This document shows positions 26,900-35,989 of a stretch of DNA of 55,913 nt, piece after piece. Position 1 is the first letter of the stretch; every line of letters starts with the position of its first letter. The stretch lies in IMG/VR virus record IMGVR_UViG_3300017751_000001, one strand, 5' to 3'. The notes beneath the pieces are model-generated. The model ran no database searches. It saw nothing but the letters and a program-made list of their open reading frames with translations, and had not been told where the DNA came from. The position numbers and the translations under genes were made by a program. This DNA is from a virus.

Positions 26900-26907
26900 T
26901 ATTTATT
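26900..26907 (-). promoter_or_regulatory. T4-type late promoter
   Basis: AATAAATA overlapping the fibre stop codon. Confidence 0.55.
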
Positions 26908-29900
26908 TCAGTTTTTTAATCTCCTCTCTGAGGGAATCAATCTGATCAGATTGTTCCTTAATTGCTTCAATAAGCAAAGGAACAATCTTTTCATACTTAA
27001 CGGTTAGGTAACTGTCGTGTGCAGAATCAGTAACTGCTTCAGGTAGAACTTTTTCAACCTCTTGTGCAGAAACACCAACATGGTCAATTGTTGTATCTTT
27101 ACCAAATTCATCAAGAGCACGTTCGTTAAAGTTGAATGTAAAACCATTCAAAGAACGTACTTTTTCTAGAGCATTTGCAATAGTATTTCTATTGGTCTTC
27201 AGTCGATCATCTGATACGAAAGCAACAACGTCTCCTTTTATTCTTAAGTCATTGGAGTTTGAGTCGTAGGATATTCCAGAATCAACTCTCATTCTAGTGT
27301 ACGCACCACCCCCCGCATTGCCTTTCTGTAGAATAAGATAGTGTGGACCAGAGTCATTCCCTAAACCATTGACCAGAACGTCATCGGTTTTACCCGCCTT
27401 GCCAGTTGTATCTTGGTTTAGTGTTGGAACCACTGAAGCATCAAGTGTTCCTCCTACGATATCATCAGCACTGATTTCAGGAACTACACTAGAAGGTAGT
27501 GTTCCTGTTGTGATGTTTGATGCGTTTAGGTTAGTGACCTCGGAACCATTACCAATAAATTTACCCCTGAAATTAGGAGCATAAACTGAACTATTCTCGT
27601 ATTTGAAATTACTGACTACAACAGTTTGGTTTTCACCAACGTTATGTAAAATGCCTTTGAGCTTATCAACACTCTGTGCCTTAGTCGCATTAGAGGCAGT
27701 TCCTGTTAAATTACCAGTAACGTTACCAGTGATTGTACTACTTACGTTGAGTGTGCCACTAAATGATCCATTACTACCACTTATAGTTCCTCCACTGAAA
27801 CTATTTGCGGTAATAATATTACCTTTAAAGTTGCCAGAACTATCTCGGGAAACAATACTAGCACTACTTTGATTAGTAGAAGACGTATTCATTCCATCAA
27901 GTAAGTCTGCATTAAAGTTGGTGACTTTAGTTGTAGATACACACTTGAATGGTGCGTTACCAGTGGCACAAGTAGATTCAAATTGGAATGATTTTACTTT
28001 ACCATTAGTACCACAATTAATATCCAGTTGAGTGACACCATTAGCAGTATATCCATTCAGATATCTGATCTTAGCATCGGCACCTTGGTCACCACTACTA
28101 TTACCAACTTCCAACTTAGGTGTTTTGATAATACCACTGGAAGAAGGTTCCATGGTAAGTTCTTGCGATGTGATATTGTTAATCGTCGCAGAAGAACCAC
28201 TATCAGTACAAGTAATTGTTGATGTTGCAGTAATTGCCGTACAATTAATAGTAAGAGTACTAGCAGTTTTTGGATTTAATGTAGTTGCTTTAACATCATT
28301 AAATATTGCAGTTGGACCTACAATTTGCTGATCAAATTCAATTTCCCTAATTCTTGCAACAGAAGATCCACCCTGAACTTCTAGATCTCCAGTCAAAGTT
28401 AGATCTGTACCAGAACCAGTAGTATAATTAAGAGTCTTAATAGTGGCACTAGATCCACCATCAGTAACAGTCAGGTTATTTGTTACCTCAAAGTTAGTTG
28501 CAATACCAGATTGAATTTTTGGTTGATTTAGATGAGAGACAGAAGGTGCATGGAAGTTGGTAATAACACCAACATTGATATATGCACTAGTAATAGCAAC
28601 TCTCGAAACACCTTGATATGTTTCACCACCGCCTTGTACTGGTAGTGCTACACTTCCTCCACCAGTATCATCTGGCATACCAGGACCAGTAAGACTTACA
28701 ATGTTTGCATGGCCATTAAGTGTAGATCCTGATCTATTACCAATTGTCAGAACTCCACCAGGTCCAGTAGTTCCAACATTGAAATCAGTAGCAAAACCAG
28801 TTTGAACTACAAGATCTTCAGCAAAGAACTTACCACTACCATTCAGTGGATCTTGTTCTCTTACAGATATGTTACTACAGGTAATGTCACCCTTGATTGA
28901 GTTAATACCAGTGTAACCAGAAGTAATTTCTCCTAGGAAATCAACCTTACAATTGGATTTGAAGGAAACATAAGTACCAACAACTTCCATATCGTGAAGT
29001 CTGGATGTGCCTCCCTCATGTACTTGAGTATAGTATCCATAAGTTTCCCACTTAATACCCTCATCGGAGAATCCACCAGAGAAATTATAAGCATAGAAGT
29101 TTGCAAGTTGTCTAACAACAATGGAGTCATAAGTAACACCAGAGAATGTCTGATTAGATGCAAATGTAACAATACCAGCAACAAATAGGTGATCTAGTTT
29201 AGTTACACCATTAACTTCTAGAGTATCTCTCCATCGGAAAGTAGAACCATCACTAGCACCAATAGATACTTGATCTACGGTGTAGAAGTTTCTATGCTTC
29301 TCTCTAGAAATAACACCAAATCTTCTCCAATCACCCTCGGCATAAATGTGTCCAACATACCCACCATTATCAGGAATACCAATGAATGAAAGGTCACCTG
29401 ATCTCTTAGCACCTGTTGGAGTTTGAATACCAACTGTCATCAATTTACCCTGAGGTGCATTACCTCTCAGGAAGAAGTTCTTAGTTTCAATGCCGGCATC
29501 CGAACTATTAGCAAGTTTTTCGGTGAAGTTTACAGGACCATAGAATTGGGATGTTCTATTGTTATTATCACCACCCTCAACCGTAATTGATTCCCTAACA
29601 AGTAGTTCATCAAATACACCAGAAACTCTCTTAGTTCCTTCTGCCTCAGCATCATCTCCAGTATATGAGAAGATGGGTGCGCCAACAACTTCTTCTTCAC
29701 CAGTAATAGACGATAACCTCTTATATCCAGTATAGAAGTCACCACTGTCATTCATTCCAGTGTATACAACTTTACCACCATCAAGTTCTTTCTTTTGTGC
29801 GGCAAGTGTTTCTATATCTGTTAGAACTCTATCCTGTTTTTGTGGCAGAGATGTTGAGTAGTTACCAGATCCATAACCTAGATATTCAAATGTATGTCCA

Positions 29901-32900
29901 GACGCACGGAGAATAGATGGTCTACGAAGTTCCATTGGAAGAACTGCAATCTTCTTGATAGTTGATCCAACTGGTGCTGAGGTATTAACTGTACCAAACT
30001 GACCACGAAGAACACTATTAATATTATCACTGGTGAAACGCATGATTTCTGAACCAATGACAATATAATCTCCTTTACTAAATCCTTCTGTCGAAGTAAG
30101 AGTAAGTACAGTATCAGTAGAAGTGATTGGAGCATCAACAGTGGTGGAAATACCAGCATAGAAATAAGATGCTCTACCTGCAAGATTATTTTCACCAAGA
30201 CCTAGAGTCTTAGAGTTTGCACTGATACCAGTACCAAATAGTCTAGTATTAATTGTGTCATATGCAGTTATGAAACCAACAGTATGAACACCAACACTGA
30301 AGTGAATACTCCTTAGTGGATTATCATTGTCAACATCATCAACGATAAAGATGTTATCATCCCAATTACCATTTCCAGTTCCCTGAATAGTAAAACAGTT
30401 ACCAGCAACCAAAGTATGGTTAGCATCTGTTAGAAGTTTTACAGAGCCTTCATCTCTGTCAATAACATCAATGTAAGTTACTCCAACACCAATATTTGCA
30501 TGATGATATGTTGGGAGTCTTCTGTCATCTCTGACAGTGAAGTATGGTCCTAGTCCTCTAGATTGTGGAATTTCTACAGAGATTGACTTAGAACTTGGAA
30601 TGTCTACAATTTTAAATGTTCCATTCAGAATAGGATCTGCGAAACCAGATAGGTGCATACCATCATAGATGTTATCAAATACACCAGTAACTTCAACAAC
30701 AGCATTAGTTGTAGGAGATCCTGCTGGGAAAGCAGAGATAGTCATGGTATTACCAATACCATAACCAGTACCACCATCAAGAATCTCTACACTTGTTACA
30801 GTACCAGCGGCAGAAATTTGTACTTTAGCTGATGATTGTTTGCCAGTTAAAGCAACGTTTTCGAGATCTGCAGCATAGATAACAGTCGAAATACCAGAAC
30901 CGTTATTATATCCAGAACCAGGCTCGATAATATTAAGACTCTTAATCTGATTGAATCTATGTTCTGAATCCGTGAACATTGTAAGAGTGGTGTTACCCGT
31001 ACCAGTGACAACTGCACCAGTTACAGCATAACCAACTCTCTGACCTTGCATGAAATATGACAGTGCCTCACGAGTCAAAGAGTTCTGTCTATTATTAGAA
31101 ATTACGTTACCAATAACACTTGCATTAGCATGAGTGATAGATGGTTGTGGATCAGATGTATAGTTGTCTCTATCTTGTTGAGGATATAGATTTCTAATAT
31201 CCTGCGAGAAGGACTTAGTAGATACACCGAAACCAAGATCCTTATCCAAAGGAATAGAACCACAAACGAGAGTTAGGTTATATACACCATCTTGTCCAGA
31301 AGTTCCAGGAATATGTGGTTTAGACTCTTGCACTCTATACACATATAGAGAGTCCAATGCTTTAGATCTTTCAACTATAGGAAGATCTTCAATTTGTTGT
31401 TGCGTAGTTCTCTCGTTAATTTCATTAAGGAATGCACCAGGATCCGTAGTAATACCAGTAATGGTAAATGCCTTACTAGAAACTACATTATCAATTTCAA
31501 ACTCACCATTAAATCCAACTTTATAGGTATTAAGTGGATTGTTAACGGACTCTACATTTTTAACTTTAACTAAATCACCCTCAATCAATCTGTGAGGAAG
31601 TTCAGTTGTGATCGTAATAGTTGTGCCATTAAAATCAGCACTCTTAATGATCTTAACATTCTTAAGTTGAGTTGGGTTAGAGAGATCCGCAGTTAGGAAA
31701 GATGCACTACCAATACCAACAGTCTTAGATTCCTGTAGAACAAATCCAGGTTTAGGAGCACGAGCATCAACATGTTCTTTAGGTAGAACATATCTAACAC
31801 GATACAATCTATCGATAAGGGATCTGTTATCTACTCTACGTTTGACGTATGTTGAACCAGTTTCATCACCAATAACACCAGCACCAATAGTTTGAAGTGC
31901 TGGGAAGATCTGGTTAAATGTTTCACTGGGGTGAGCAATAACATACCACTGTGTATTAACATTATCCCATTGAATTGGGTGTCCAGGATCTCCTGGTAAT
32001 TTATCAGTAACTCTAGAAACTACAGTTAGTTCACCACCACCATTAGCCAAACCAGTTAGAGGTCTACGAGCAAGAGCATCATTACGTGTAGATGCTAACT
32101 GAATTCTATTTGCAGCAAGGTTACCACCAGCAATAGCATAGTAGATCTTATCATTAACAATACCGTTTGGAGTTTCTCCAGTATTAGAGAAGATTCTAAT
32201 TTTCTCACCATTATTGAGTTGGTGATTAGTTGTTAGGGTAATAACATTAGAAATAATAGCATTGACACCAGAATTTCTAATAACTTTATAGTCTTTCTCG
32301 GACTCTACACCAGTTCCTGAAGGAACCTGCATAAGAATTGGAGTCTCATAAGTTTCCTGAACTGCCTGACCAGTGAGAGTATTAACAATACTCAAAAATA
32401 GTTTATCTTCCTTCTTGGCACCAATTCTATAAGAGTCAACCTGTGCAGGTGGAACAATTTCTTCTGTATTATAATTAAAGAGATATAGTCTATCAGTAAT
32501 ACCAACACCAACAGTTTTTGGTGTATCAAGTGTCAACCAAGATGCCGTAGTTTCTGCTTTTTGGATTTCTCTTGGGGGTAGAACGTGAGTGATGTATCCT
32601 ACATCATCACGATTAAACGACTCTGGTCTAAATCCTGATGATTCCAGAGCAGTTTGTCCAAAGTTAGAGTTAGAGTTAGTAATTGAAGCATCACCACCTC
32701 TTTCTGCATGGAAATGACGTGCATATGCAATAGCAAAGATGGAAACTAACTGAACAACAGCATTGTTCCTTACTCTCATGTGAGAGGTTTCAAATGTTGG
32801 TTTATAGATTGCTCTTGAGTTTGAGTGTAGAGGTCTATCTGAATCAGATACACTCAGATCATCATTGAAGATTGCAGTGTCGGGATTGTAGAGAATGAAA

Positions 32901-34174
32901 GCATCATCATCTTTCTGAATAGAAATACCCGTAAACTGAGCACAAACCATGGACTTAAATCCAGTGGCTTTATCACCATCACAATCAAGTCCATTGAGAC
33001 CGTATACTGAACGTAGAGAGCAGTTAAAGACGTAAGGTGATGCAGAACCCACAGTATCGGGTTCGATGATTACAGACGAATTCTGGATCTCCTGAGACGT
33101 TGGCAGTGCTGTGATAGGTACACTGGGAGCAAGATATGTGAACTCAGTATCGCTGATAACTTCCTCAACTAGGAAGGATCCGTTGTATGAGTTAACAGAT
33201 GTTGTGATACCAGCAATAAGAACAGGAGTATCCTTGAATAGTCCATGTGCCTTTGTCGTGTCTACAGTGATAATATTATTAGGAGTATTACCGTCACCAG
33301 ACTTAATAGAAGTAATACCAACTGGGTCAGCAGCAAGGTCACCAACAATTCTAAATTCGTCTACACTTGGTTCAAAATCATCGAATGTAGGATAATCGGG
33401 AACAGGTCTACCAGAAGCATCACCATAAGCTTTTGCTACCTTAAAGTAGAACATATCTAGGTCGGTTAACCCAGAATCCTCTCCATTGATTATTACATTA
33501 TTTACACCATCTGCATAGGTAAATGCAGCTAGTTTATGGTGAGAACATGTAGGAACCTTTGTGTTACTATCATAGTCATAGTATGCGGTTCTAGAAATAT
33601 CTGCATCAAAGATCGTGAAAGCGGTAAAGTAACAAGTACCAGTAACACGAAGAATACCACTATATAATTGGTTATCATCTAGTGCATCGGGTACATATAA
33701 TGGTCTCAGTTTAGTTTTACGAAGATCCAATCCAATGATAGAAGTACCACGGGGGAGAATTGATCCGCCTTCCGTGGAGTTATACTTATAAAGTTCGTTG
33801 TTTGGATCTAGAATATCAAAATTAGTTTCCGAAGTAAACTGAGTCAGATCAGCAGGTTGCCATCCTGCATTTTTCCTAATACTAAATTGAGCAGATCCGA
33901 GATTACTCGTTACAGTATATCCTGGTCTGTTATCAATGTAGTGAATGCCAGGGAAAACCAGAATGGTCGTTCTATCAATTTTGTCATTATTTTTGCCTGT
34001 TTGATAAGAAAATCTAGCAGCTTCAATTAAAGCTCGTTGAATAGTTTTGAATGGTCTCGTCTGTGAGTTACCACGGTTTTCAATACTATCAGTAGCATCA
34101 AAGTCGCTTGGATTTACATATAAAATATTACCTTCAGCGTTCTTTAGAAAATTTTCTAATCTTGATAGAGGCAT
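26903..34174 (-). CDS. Large tail fibre/structural protein with C-terminal peptidase S74 intramolecular chaperone
   Basis: N-terminal ILYVNPSDFDATDS..NRGNS..RPFKTIQRA; G/S/T-rich beta repeats; SDDRLKTN...GVSAQEVEKVLPEAV...YEKIVPLLIEAIKE. Confidence 0.88.
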   Translation of the reverse strand: MPLSRLENFLKNAEGNILYVNPSDFDATDSIENRGNSQTRPFKTIQRALIEAARFSYQTGKNNDKIDRTTILVFPGIHYIDNRPGYTVTSNLGSAQFSIRKNAGWQPADLTQFTSETNFDILDPNNELYKYNSTEGGSILPRGTSIIGLDLRKTKLRPLYVPDALDDNQLYSGILRVTGTCYFTAFTIFDADISRTAYYDYDSNTKVPTCSHHKLAAFTYADGVNNVIINGEDSGLTDLDMFYFKVAKAYGDASGRPVPDYPTFDDFEPSVDEFRIVGDLAADPVGITSIKSGDGNTPNNIITVDTTKAHGLFKDTPVLIAGITTSVNSYNGSFLVEEVISDTEFTYLAPSVPITALPTSQEIQNSSVIIEPDTVGSASPYVFNCSLRSVYGLNGLDCDGDKATGFKSMVCAQFTGISIQKDDDAFILYNPDTAIFNDDLSVSDSDRPLHSNSRAIYKPTFETSHMRVRNNAVVQLVSIFAIAYARHFHAERGGDASITNSNSNFGQTALESSGFRPESFNRDDVGYITHVLPPREIQKAETTASWLTLDTPKTVGVGITDRLYLFNYNTEEIVPPAQVDSYRIGAKKEDKLFLSIVNTLTGQAVQETYETPILMQVPSGTGVESEKDYKVIRNSGVNAIISNVITLTTNHQLNNGEKIRIFSNTGETPNGIVNDKIYYAIAGGNLAANRIQLASTRNDALARRPLTGLANGGGELTVVSRVTDKLPGDPGHPIQWDNVNTQWYVIAHPSETFNQIFPALQTIGAGVIGDETGSTYVKRRVDNRSLIDRLYRVRYVLPKEHVDARAPKPGFVLQESKTVGIGSASFLTADLSNPTQLKNVKIIKSADFNGTTITITTELPHRLIEGDLVKVKNVESVNNPLNTYKVGFNGEFEIDNVVSSKAFTITGITTDPGAFLNEINERTTQQQIEDLPIVERSKALDSLYVYRVQESKPHIPGTSGQDGVYNLTLVCGSIPLDKDLGFGVSTKSFSQDIRNLYPQQDRDNYTSDPQPSITHANASVIGNVISNNRQNSLTREALSYFMQGQRVGYAVTGAVVTGTGNTTLTMFTDSEHRFNQIKSLNIIEPGSGYNNGSGISTVIYAADLENVALTGKQSSAKVQISAAGTVTSVEILDGGTGYGIGNTMTISAFPAGSPTTNAVVEVTGVFDNIYDGMHLSGFADPILNGTFKIVDIPSSKSISVEIPQSRGLGPYFTVRDDRRLPTYHHANIGVGVTYIDVIDRDEGSVKLLTDANHTLVAGNCFTIQGTGNGNWDDNIFIVDDVDNDNPLRSIHFSVGVHTVGFITAYDTINTRLFGTGISANSKTLGLGENNLAGRASYFYAGISTTVDAPITSTDTVLTLTSTEGFSKGDYIVIGSEIMRFTSDNINSVLRGQFGTVNTSAPVGSTIKKIAVLPMELRRPSILRASGHTFEYLGYGSGNYSTSLPQKQDRVLTDIETLAAQKKELDGGKVVYTGMNDSGDFYTGYKRLSSITGEEEVVGAPIFSYTGDDAEAEGTKRVSGVFDELLVRESITVEGGDNNNRTSQFYGPVNFTEKLANSSDAGIETKNFFLRGNAPQGKLMTVGIQTPTGAKRSGDLSFIGIPDNGGYVGHIYAEGDWRRFGVISREKHRNFYTVDQVSIGASDGSTFRWRDTLEVNGVTKLDHLFVAGIVTFASNQTFSGVTYDSIVVRQLANFYAYNFSGGFSDEGIKWETYGYYTQVHEGGTSRLHDMEVVGTYVSFKSNCKVDFLGEITSGYTGINSIKGDITCSNISVREQDPLNGSGKFFAEDLVVQTGFATDFNVGTTGPGGVLTIGNRSGSTLNGHANIVSLTGPGMPDDTGGGSVALPVQGGGETYQGVSRVAITSAYINVGVITNFHAPSVSHLNQPKIQSGIATNFEVTNNLTVTDGGSSATIKTLNYTTGSGTDLTLTGDLEVQGGSSVARIREIEFDQQIVGPTAIFNDVKATTLNPKTASTLTINCTAITATSTITCTDSGSSATINNITSQELTMEPSSSGIIKTPKLEVGNSSGDQGADAKIRYLNGYTANGVTQLDINCGTNGKVKSFQFESTCATGNAPFKCVSTTKVTNFNADLLDGMNTSSTNQSSASIVSRDSSGNFKGNIITANSFSGGTISGSNGSFSGTLNVSSTITGNVTGNLTGTASNATKAQSVDKLKGILHNVGENQTVVVSNFKYENSSVYAPNFRGKFIGNGSEVTNLNASNITTGTLPSSVVPEISADDIVGGTLDASVVPTLNQDTTGKAGKTDDVLVNGLGNDSGPHYLILQKGNAGGGAYTRMRVDSGISYDSNSNDLRIKGDVVAFVSDDRLKTNRNTIANALEKVRSLNGFTFNFNERALDEFGKDTTIDHVGVSAQEVEKVLPEAVTDSAHDSYLTVKYEKIVPLLIEAIKEQSDQIDSLREEIKKLK

Positions 34175-35297: not shown

Positions 35298-35369
35298 CTC
35301 CCCTTCCTGGGATCGAACCAGGGACCAAACGATTAACAGTCGTTCGCTCTACCGCTGAGCTAAAGAGGA
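35298..35369 (-). tRNA. tRNA-Asn(GTT)
   Basis: TCCTCTT/AAGGGGA acceptor, AACGA-CTGTTAA-TCGTT arm, GGTTCGATCC. Confidence 0.95.
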
Positions 35370-35551
35370 TTGTCTTTTTTATGCGTCTCTAGAAGATATT
35401 CAACAGTGTTTGCTACATCATTCATAGCATCACGAAGCATAGGTTGTTGACCAGAAGTTTGTTCTACTTTAGTAGTGCCATTCTTAAACTCCTCGCAAAG
35501 AGTCCAACGCCATTGACCCATACTATTAGAATACCAAAGATTGATCTTCAT
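35360..35551 (-). CDS. Conserved small hypothetical protein
   Basis: MKINLWYS..MGQWRWTL; GAGG SD; stop overlaps tRNA-Asn 5' end. Confidence 0.7.
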   Translation of the reverse strand: MKINLWYSNSMGQWRWTLCEEFKNGTTKVEQTSGQQPMLRDAMNDVANTVEYLLETHKKDNPL

Positions 35552-35566
35552 GGAACCTCTAGATTT

Positions 35567-35587
35567 AAAGGGGGCATTACACCCCCC
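35567..35587 (-). terminator. Hairpin/terminator after tmRNA
   Basis: GGGGGG-TGTAATG-CCCCC-TTT. Confidence 0.55.
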
Positions 35588-35594
35588 AGAACTA

Positions 35595-35842
35595 CTTGGT
35601 TAACAAGGCTAGTTTAACCCCGATCTCCCATTTAGGCAGTCGCGAGTTCGCGAGTGCGGGAGAATGCAACGATGTTATTCGCTGCGGTGTCAGATGTTTT
35701 TGCATCTATGGTTTGCTTATCCAAGCAGGTTTCAGTCACATTCCGTGTACCCTGTCGAAACCATGGCACCCCCAAGTAATGGAGGTGAGGGGAATCGAAC
35801 CCCTGTCCAGAATGTCGATGATGCAACCTATTCCACAAAAGT
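35595..35842 (-). ncRNA. ssrA: Circularly permuted two-piece tmRNA
   Basis: Acceptor piece ending GGACAGGGGTTCGATTCCCCTCACCTCCA (35780), 6-nt spacer, coding piece starting GGGGGTGCCATGGTTTCGAC (35773); G3.U70; tag ANNIVAFSRTRELATA* at 35632-35682; outer ends approximate. Confidence 0.93.
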
Positions 35843-35846
35843 GGAA

Positions 35847-35918
35847 AGCCCACAGTCGGATTTGAACCAACGACCTACGCTTTACAAAAGCGTTGCTCTA
35901 CCACTGAGCTATGTGGGC
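35847..35918 (-). tRNA. tRNA-Thr(TGT)
   Basis: GCCCACA/TGTGGGC acceptor, ACGCT-TTTGTAA-AGCGT arm, GGTTCAAATCC. Confidence 0.95.
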
Positions 35919-35960: not shown

Positions 35961-35989
35961 AATATAGACTAGAAAAGGTTAGATGTCAA
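35961..35989 (-). promoter_or_regulatory. sigma70-type promoter of the tRNA/tmRNA cluster
   Basis: TTGACA-N17-TATATT. Confidence 0.8.

Follow-up and report, generated by a model that had tools for sequence, protein, structure and literature searches.

A permuted cyanobacterial-type tmRNA gene in a T4-like cyanomyovirus whose tag frame ends unlike those of picocyanobacteria

Phage-borne tmRNAs mean that some viruses bring along a ribosome-rescue RNA of their own. Among phototrophs, the marine picocyanobacteria rank with the most abundant, and translation in these hosts is reshaped by their T4-like phages. Here, we analysed a 55,913-nt stretch of viral DNA (IMG/VR record IMGVR_UViG_3300017751_000001; hereafter the window) and asked whether a locus within it encodes a tmRNA. 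This gene and its relatives share a conserved, phage-specific tag design, whereas the Ala-Ala end of the host tags never varies, which raises the further question of whether the phage changes the fate of rescued proteins.

Identity and architecture of the gene

An initial annotation had placed a phage-encoded, circularly permuted two-piece tmRNA at positions 35595-35842. The feature proved real, although it lies on the minus strand and extends slightly farther, from 35846 to 35571. Both computational checks proposed at the time were strongly positive. ARAGORN reported a permuted tmRNA ('tmRNA*') at 35541-35869(-), and the Rfam model cyano_tmRNA (RF01851) matched end to end over 35863-35571 with 141.6 bits (E = 1.4e-38; cut-off 70 bits). 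The merged model tmRNA_permuted (RF04321, cut-off 47 bits) gave 87.2 bits. As the initial 17 nt of the Rfam match are the 3' end of a tRNA-Thr, the tmRNA proper begins at about 35846. An MFE fold of the single sequence (z = -3.76) recovered the T-arm, the acceptor stem and the main inter-piece helix P2 unaided. The locus is thus confirmed as a circularly permuted tmRNA gene of the cyanobacterial type.

Its parts follow each other in the permuted order that had been claimed, the T-arm and the acceptor 3' strand preceding the acceptor 5' strand on the minus strand. The acceptor stem GGGGGUG/CACCUCC-A with its G3.U70 pair was recovered both from the sequence and from the Rfam-derived pairs, and the 6-nt spacer UUACUU is present at 35779-35774. 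No CCA is encoded in the gene. The features are as follows, from upstream to downstream.

35961..35989 (-): near-consensus sigma-70-type promoter candidate, TTGACA-17 nt-TATATT (11/12 hexamer matches; a consensus match only)
35847..35918 (-): tRNA-Thr (UGU), abutting the tmRNA 5' end (ARAGORN)
35831..35846 (-): 5' hairpin of the acceptor piece, UUCCAC/GUGGAA (Rfam alignment; host genes have an equivalent hairpin there)
35780..35828 (-): remainder of the acceptor piece (Rfam alignment and the pairs listed below)
35828-35808 (-): 5' strands of the inter-piece helix P2 (Rfam-derived pairs)
35804-35788 (-): T-arm (Rfam-derived pairs)
35787-35781 (-): acceptor 3' strand CACCUCC, with the discriminator A at 35780
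35774..35779 (-): intervening spacer UUACUU, which would be taken out when the precursor is cut (sequence)
35734..35773 (-): start of the coding piece, with acceptor 5' strand, D-loop analogue and P2 3' strands (Rfam alignment)
35773-35767 (-): acceptor 5' strand GGGGGUG, G3 opposite U70 (sequence, pairs)
35754-35734 (-): P2 3' strands (Rfam-derived pairs)
35714..35727 (-): PK1-region hairpin UGCUU/AAGCA, homologue of host UGCUC/GAGCA (re-alignment)
35683..35703 (-): 21-nt (7-codon) in-frame insertion peculiar to this phage lineage, opening with the probable resume codon and encoding AKTSDTA (ARAGORN coding start, alignments)
35632..35682 (-): host-like tag frame ANNIVAFSRTRELATA and stop codon UAA (35634-35632)
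35663-35658 (-): UCUCCC strand, paired with GGGAGA at 35629-35624
35656-35637 (-): tag hairpin (pairs, MFE fold)
35571..35631 (-): 3' domain of the coding piece (Rfam alignment, pairs, MFE fold)
35628-35598 (-): 3'-domain hairpin
35585-35571 (-): G+C-rich terminal hairpin, then UUUAAAU

Two further pairings between the pieces had been suggested in the initial annotation, with different outcomes. AUUCU/AGGGU is part of the Rfam P2 helix and covaries. AGGUU/AACCU is absent from the Rfam model, shows 70% of cells paired and involves a segment that is missing in 6 of the 18 phage homologues; we rejected it in favour of the competing Rfam helix GGU/ACU, which is paired in 18/18. The short spacer was also considered as a peculiarity of the gene. 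This was rejected, since phage spacers of 5-7 nt are ordinary when set against those of hosts (median 7 nt, minimum 5). The 5' hairpin (helix 1) aligns poorly among distant phage clades.

Compared with picocyanobacterial tmRNA, the phage gene shares the permuted order, the 5' hairpin, P2, the T-arm, the G3.U70 acceptor stem, the D-loop analogue, the PK1-region hairpin, the tag core ANNIV.FSR, the tag hairpin, the 3' hairpins and the lack of an encoded CCA. The T-loop and the D-loop analogue are the same as in hosts. Only two differences separate the tRNA-like domains, and both are compensated flips: a G-C for a C-G pair in the T-arm, and a C-G for a G-C pair in the acceptor stem.

Genomic context and relatives

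Judging from its sequence, the window is DNA of a T4-like cyanomyovirus and not of a host. Synechococcus phage Sf-FS3 is the closest record, but a different phage (over 20 kb, only 26% aligned, at 81% identity, with the gene order kept). The G+C content of the window is 34-43%, and the neighbouring genes encode a minor coat protein phrog, an Ig-like domain protein and two 2OG-Fe(II) oxygenases. The window holds four RNA genes according to ARAGORN, each on the minus strand: tRNA-Thr (35918-35847), the permuted tmRNA, tRNA-Asn and tRNA-Met. The promoter candidate lies ~43 nt upstream of tRNA-Thr, and from its position tRNA-Thr and the tmRNA probably share one precursor. The predicted promoter is the likely start of this precursor transcript. 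No riboswitch beside the gene, as present in Melnitz and AG-345-P14, was detected within the window at the Rfam cut-off.

The tmRNA locus is laid out as in Sf-FS3, between tRNA-Thr and a small ORF that is followed by tRNA-Asn. This ORF of 63 aa (35360-35551, minus strand) immediately follows the tmRNA and shares 10 nt with tRNA-Asn. It has 81% identity with its Sf-FS3 homologue and 38% with the S-SSM7 neighbour, belongs to phrog_2818 (unknown function) and occurs in 79 cyanophage records. As a partner of the tmRNA it was rejected, because many of its carriers have no tmRNA (S-SKS1, S-TIM5, S-SM2). Elsewhere in the window, an ORF of 2423 aa (26903-34174, minus strand) encodes a tail fibre whose C-terminus carries a Peptidase_S74 intramolecular chaperone domain and which is homologous to Sf-FS3 gene 26 and S-SSM7 gene 28.

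A blastn search of a 50,697-record phage collection returned 18 matching records; within the matched parts, nucleotide identity was 71-88%. The phages concerned are Sf-FS3, S-CAM1, S-CAM3, S-SSM7/S-SSM6a, Marine virus AG-345-P14 and S-CBWM1, and ARAGORN together with Rfam confirmed a permuted cyano-type tmRNA in each of them. The carriers fall into Lipsvirus, Anaposvirus, Charybdisvirus, the Sf-FS3-like phages and Aokuangvirus. With just 18 of 50,697 records matched by blastn, the gene appears dispensable for most cyanophages. With a signature pattern, we additionally collected 27 contigs from IMG/VR and 120 from picocyanobacteria.

Permuted tmRNAs of cyanophages have already been catalogued, and the window gene adds one uncultured carrier. 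Among the 18,146 phage genomes in the survey of Buchholz et al. 2022 (PMC9004378), 402 had a tmRNA, 53 of them a two-piece one, and 50 of those 53 were aquatic. Their Table S1 lists S-CBWM1, S-CAM1, S-CAM3, S-SSM7, S-CRM01 and AG-345-P14 as 'Permuted', so the novelty implied in the initial annotation was overstated; Sf-FS3 is the sole matching cultured relative outside that list. The list of ssrA-bearing phages from the tmRNA Website of 2014 (PMC4131195) contains no cyanophage. Our literature search found no paper that analyses a cyanophage tag or tests a cyanophage tmRNA for expression, processing, charging or tagging, and the phage-specific tag design seems to be undescribed in the literature searched.

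In the GenBank records of the matching cyanophages, the stretch carries no tmRNA annotation and is either blank or covered by a 'hypothetical protein'. Such CDSs overlie the tmRNA in S-SSM7 (SSSM7_025, L004:3004-3222), S-CAM3 (gp053, L005:2959-3099) and the S-CAM1 isolates KU686192-KU686196, and the start of SfFS3_24 does so in Sf-FS3 (L001:6293-6502). These CDSs and blanks look like mis-annotations. As GenBank misses the gene or overlays it with hypothetical proteins, annotation pipelines should include a search for permuted tmRNAs. Two observations were made alongside. ARAGORN also called a one-piece 'tmRNA' in Sf-FS3 (L001:5675-6092), a false positive that spans three tRNA genes. S-CAM1 carries a wcaG RNA motif (RF01761, 83.5 bits; L003:5566-5662) ~2.3 kb downstream of its tmRNA and just before tRNA-Gly.

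Resume codon and tag peptide

The tag ANNIVAFSRTRELATA that had been proposed for the gene is present and in frame at 35682-35632, yet it probably begins seven codons farther upstream. Three in-frame Ala codons are candidates for the resume codon, and the tag would accordingly start with AKTSDTAANNIV, AANNIV or ANNIV. ARAGORN placed the start at GCA 35703 (codon 35703-35701), seven codons ahead of the GCG at 35682 that was chosen in the initial annotation and that agrees with the Rfam alignment. The placement of the extra 21 nt in the PK1 hairpin loop by cmscan was rejected for a single insertion downstream of the conserved linker, which brings hairpin and linker into base-for-base register with those of hosts and of insertion-free phage genes. 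This linker, from the PK1-region hairpin to the Ala codon, measures 10 nt in the window (ending AUAGAU), 11 nt in hosts (ending GUAACU) and 10 nt in the insertion-free phage genes, two of which (L020, L027) have a linker that ends CAGAU and is directly followed by GCA-AAU-AAC. If the 21 nt entered at the resume codon, GCA 35703 is the homologous start. Moreover, GCA 35703 is preceded by an A at -4, as in hosts, which both downstream Ala codons lack. E. coli tmRNA also has an A at this position.

Judging from these alignments, the full tag is probably AKTSDTA followed by ANNIVAFSRTRELATA, 23 residues in all. Constraint on the seven inserted codons is much weaker than on the core, with 10 extra amino-acid types against 5 synonymous ones. 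They also take part in RNA structure: the middle of the insertion pairs with its upstream context (AGAUG/CAUCU, present in AG-345-P14 in the compensated form AUCUG/CAGAU). For a second hairpin, GCNGCRA/UYGUNGC, covariation at synonymous third positions is perfect in 15/15 genes. RNA structure could account for part of the conservation, and both this and the weak constraint count against a 23-residue tag. The C-terminal ...FSRTRELATA is identical under every choice of resume codon.

It is at the C-terminus that phage and host tags part. Each of the 119 host tags is 16 residues long and closes with Ala-Ala, in nearly every case as ...APVAA (for example ANKIVSFSRQTAPVAA and ANNIVRFSRQAAPVAA). The tag in the window ends Leu-Ala-Thr-Ala and lacks the Ala-Ala end that is typical of the family, if not strictly defining. 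It shares ...AFSRTRELATA with the Sf-FS3-like tags; that of Sf-FS3 itself, AKTSDVAANNIVAFSRTRELATA, differs from the window tag by one residue. Other phage tags diverge from this form. S-CAM1 and S-CAM3 have ...AFSRSTVAA (end TVAA), S-CBWM1 has ...QAVSCA, and two contigs end in ...RRTAVAV. The tag of the S-SSM7 clade, ...AFSRILTREFARTDELVTA, ends LVTA and contains an internal duplication of 8 codons.

This duplication of ~24 nt (AFSR ... EFAR) is seen throughout the S-SSM7 clade (L004:2968-3283, L010, L016, L023, L024). Its first copy forms a new hairpin with inserted sequence, and its second copy pairs UUGCCC/GGGCAA where the window has UCUCCC/GGGAGA, that is, with two compensated pairs. In the IMG/VR contigs L020 (744-1009) and L027 (31-289), from which the 21-nt insertion is absent, the tag is ANNIVSFRRTAVAV and ends Ala-Val; here, a shortened 3' domain seems to lead without a break into a downstream tRNA.

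Selection on the gene and its proposed role

To judge conservation, pairs were counted in 18 distinct phage genes aligned on the Rfam-derived structure. In the acceptor stem and the T-arm, 100% of cells are paired, and G3.U70 is invariant (18/18). The P2 helices (helices 2-4) are 88-100% paired, with changes on both sides in 12 of 17 pairs. The paired share of cells is 81.9%, compared with 41-54% when partners are slid, and changes on both sides occur in 25 pairs as against 17.5 in shuffles, a value that 0 of 500 shuffles reached. The helices of the phage tmRNA are thus kept by compensatory changes. A comparison of the ANNIVAFSR codons across 15 phage genes yielded 8 extra synonymous codon types and a single amino-acid change, as is characteristic of a frame that is translated.

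In a tree of the core columns, 15 phage genes separate from 64 genes of Synechococcus, Cyanobium and Prochlorococcus with a split support of 100/100, and the same split received 92/93 when flanks and long-branch outliers were included. This well-supported phage-only branch points to an established phage lineage and not to recent captures; as the root of the tree is not fixed, the split carries no direction of transfer. One contig in the tree (L092), labelled as a Sphingobacterium thalpophilum MAG, bears a permuted tmRNA of picocyanobacteria that clusters with sequences of freshwater Synechococcus; the contig is probably mis-binned.

We searched for the protein partner of tmRNA as well. SmpB (PF01668) is absent from the four complete carrier genomes of Sf-FS3, S-CAM1, S-SSM7 and S-CBWM1, while a Synechococcus genome, used as positive control, scored 177.6 bits. 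This whole-genome check covers the relatives; the window was examined by tblastn with Synechococcus SmpB, which gave chance matches only (E > 1) and bears out the initial annotation, in which no smpB had been seen. Missing SmpB is what would be expected if the phage copy borrows the SmpB of its host.

Taking gene identity, structure and conservation into account, the gene probably encodes a functional two-piece tmRNA (ssrA) of picocyanobacterial ancestry, embedded in a cyanomyovirus tRNA cluster. That the region instead encodes a small protein, as GenBank assumed for S-SSM7, the S-CAM1 isolates and S-CAM3, has a next to negligible probability. Open frames of 73-102 aa do overlap the region on both strands and the homologues are overlaid by 'hypothetical protein' CDSs, but in a structured RNA with few stops, long frames arise as by-products. 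The covariance-model scores, the RNA covariation and the permuted tRNA-like architecture explain the conservation, and the indels among the homologues would be intolerable for any single long frame. It is also very unlikely that a phage ancestor acquired the gene as host DNA and that it has been carried along since then without a function. Its patchy occurrence among cyanophages (18 matching records) would fit such a passenger, as would the adjacent small ORF, present in 79 cyanophage records of which many are without tmRNA. However, the gene has persisted over several phage genera in a well-supported lineage found only in phages, and the compensatory base changes together with the synonymous-only change in the core of the tag indicate purifying selection inside phages.

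The remaining alternative grants the RNA a function of the opposite kind, namely that of a decoy, which would inhibit trans-translation in the host by titrating its SmpB, AlaRS or stalled ribosomes. A precedent exists in mycobacteriophage DS6A, whose minimal tRNA-like-domain form has an inhibitory effect (PMC4131195, PMC11915505), and both the absence of a phage SmpB and a tag end unlike that of the host would be compatible with it. We nevertheless regard a decoy as unlikely. It would not need an mRNA-like domain, yet the tag frame is intact in the window gene, whereas the DS6A form (PMC4131195) has none; the codons of ANNIVAFSR have changed almost only synonymously, and the hairpins of the tag region are kept by compensatory changes.

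For a functional tmRNA, we propose the following course of events. The RNA would be co-transcribed with tRNA-Thr, probably from an early-type promoter. The tRNA-processing enzymes of the host would then cut it in two, with ~67 nt for the acceptor piece and ~200 nt for the coding piece. Processing of the tRNA-Thr 3' end would set the 5' end of the acceptor piece, RNase P would cleave 5' of GGGGGUG, and trimming to the discriminator A would be followed by addition of CCA through the host CCA-adding enzyme. The two pieces, held together by helix P2, could then be charged with alanine by the host alanyl-tRNA synthetase via G3.U70. Host SmpB and EF-Tu would bring the RNA to ribosomes stalled on broken mRNAs, where translation would continue on the tag frame of the phage. 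As a likely benefit, ribosomes would stay free during infection, while mRNAs are cut and host transcription fails. Rescued proteins would receive a tag specified by the phage, with a Thr-Ala end and probably an N-terminal extension of seven residues.

As its C-terminus is unlike the Ala-Ala of 119/119 host tags, the phage tag may not act as the usual degron. It is conceivable, though we put this forward only tentatively, that the phage lineage redesigned the tag, with a 7-residue spacer at the resume codon and a C-terminus rewritten to Thr-Ala, and thereby alters the fate of rescued proteins. Were this the case, rescued proteins might be spared or slowed in the Ala-Ala-dependent proteolysis of the host, or routed to another protease, and ribosome rescue would be uncoupled from the host degradation pathway to the benefit of the phage.

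Other phage tmRNAs resemble the window gene in part. Those of the SAR11/OM43 myophages Melnitz and HTVC008M (PMC9004378) are likewise marine, phage-borne and permuted, with phage SmpB unreported, and have been proposed to act early in infection (PMC9004378). They differ in being of the alphaproteobacterial type, and the Melnitz gene is coupled to a glutamine riboswitch (PMC9004378). The one-piece tmRNAs of the mycobacteriophage Bxz1 group and of Bacillus phage G (PMC4131195) are also phage ssrA genes without SmpB, but have the standard, non-permuted order and come from another host phylum. Finally, the viral contig L025 (IMGVR_UViG_3300009068_000083) shows the same tRNA-like-domain pattern with an alphaproteobacterial-style tag, ANDEVFALAA, and a very long branch; it probably belongs to a phage of another host group.
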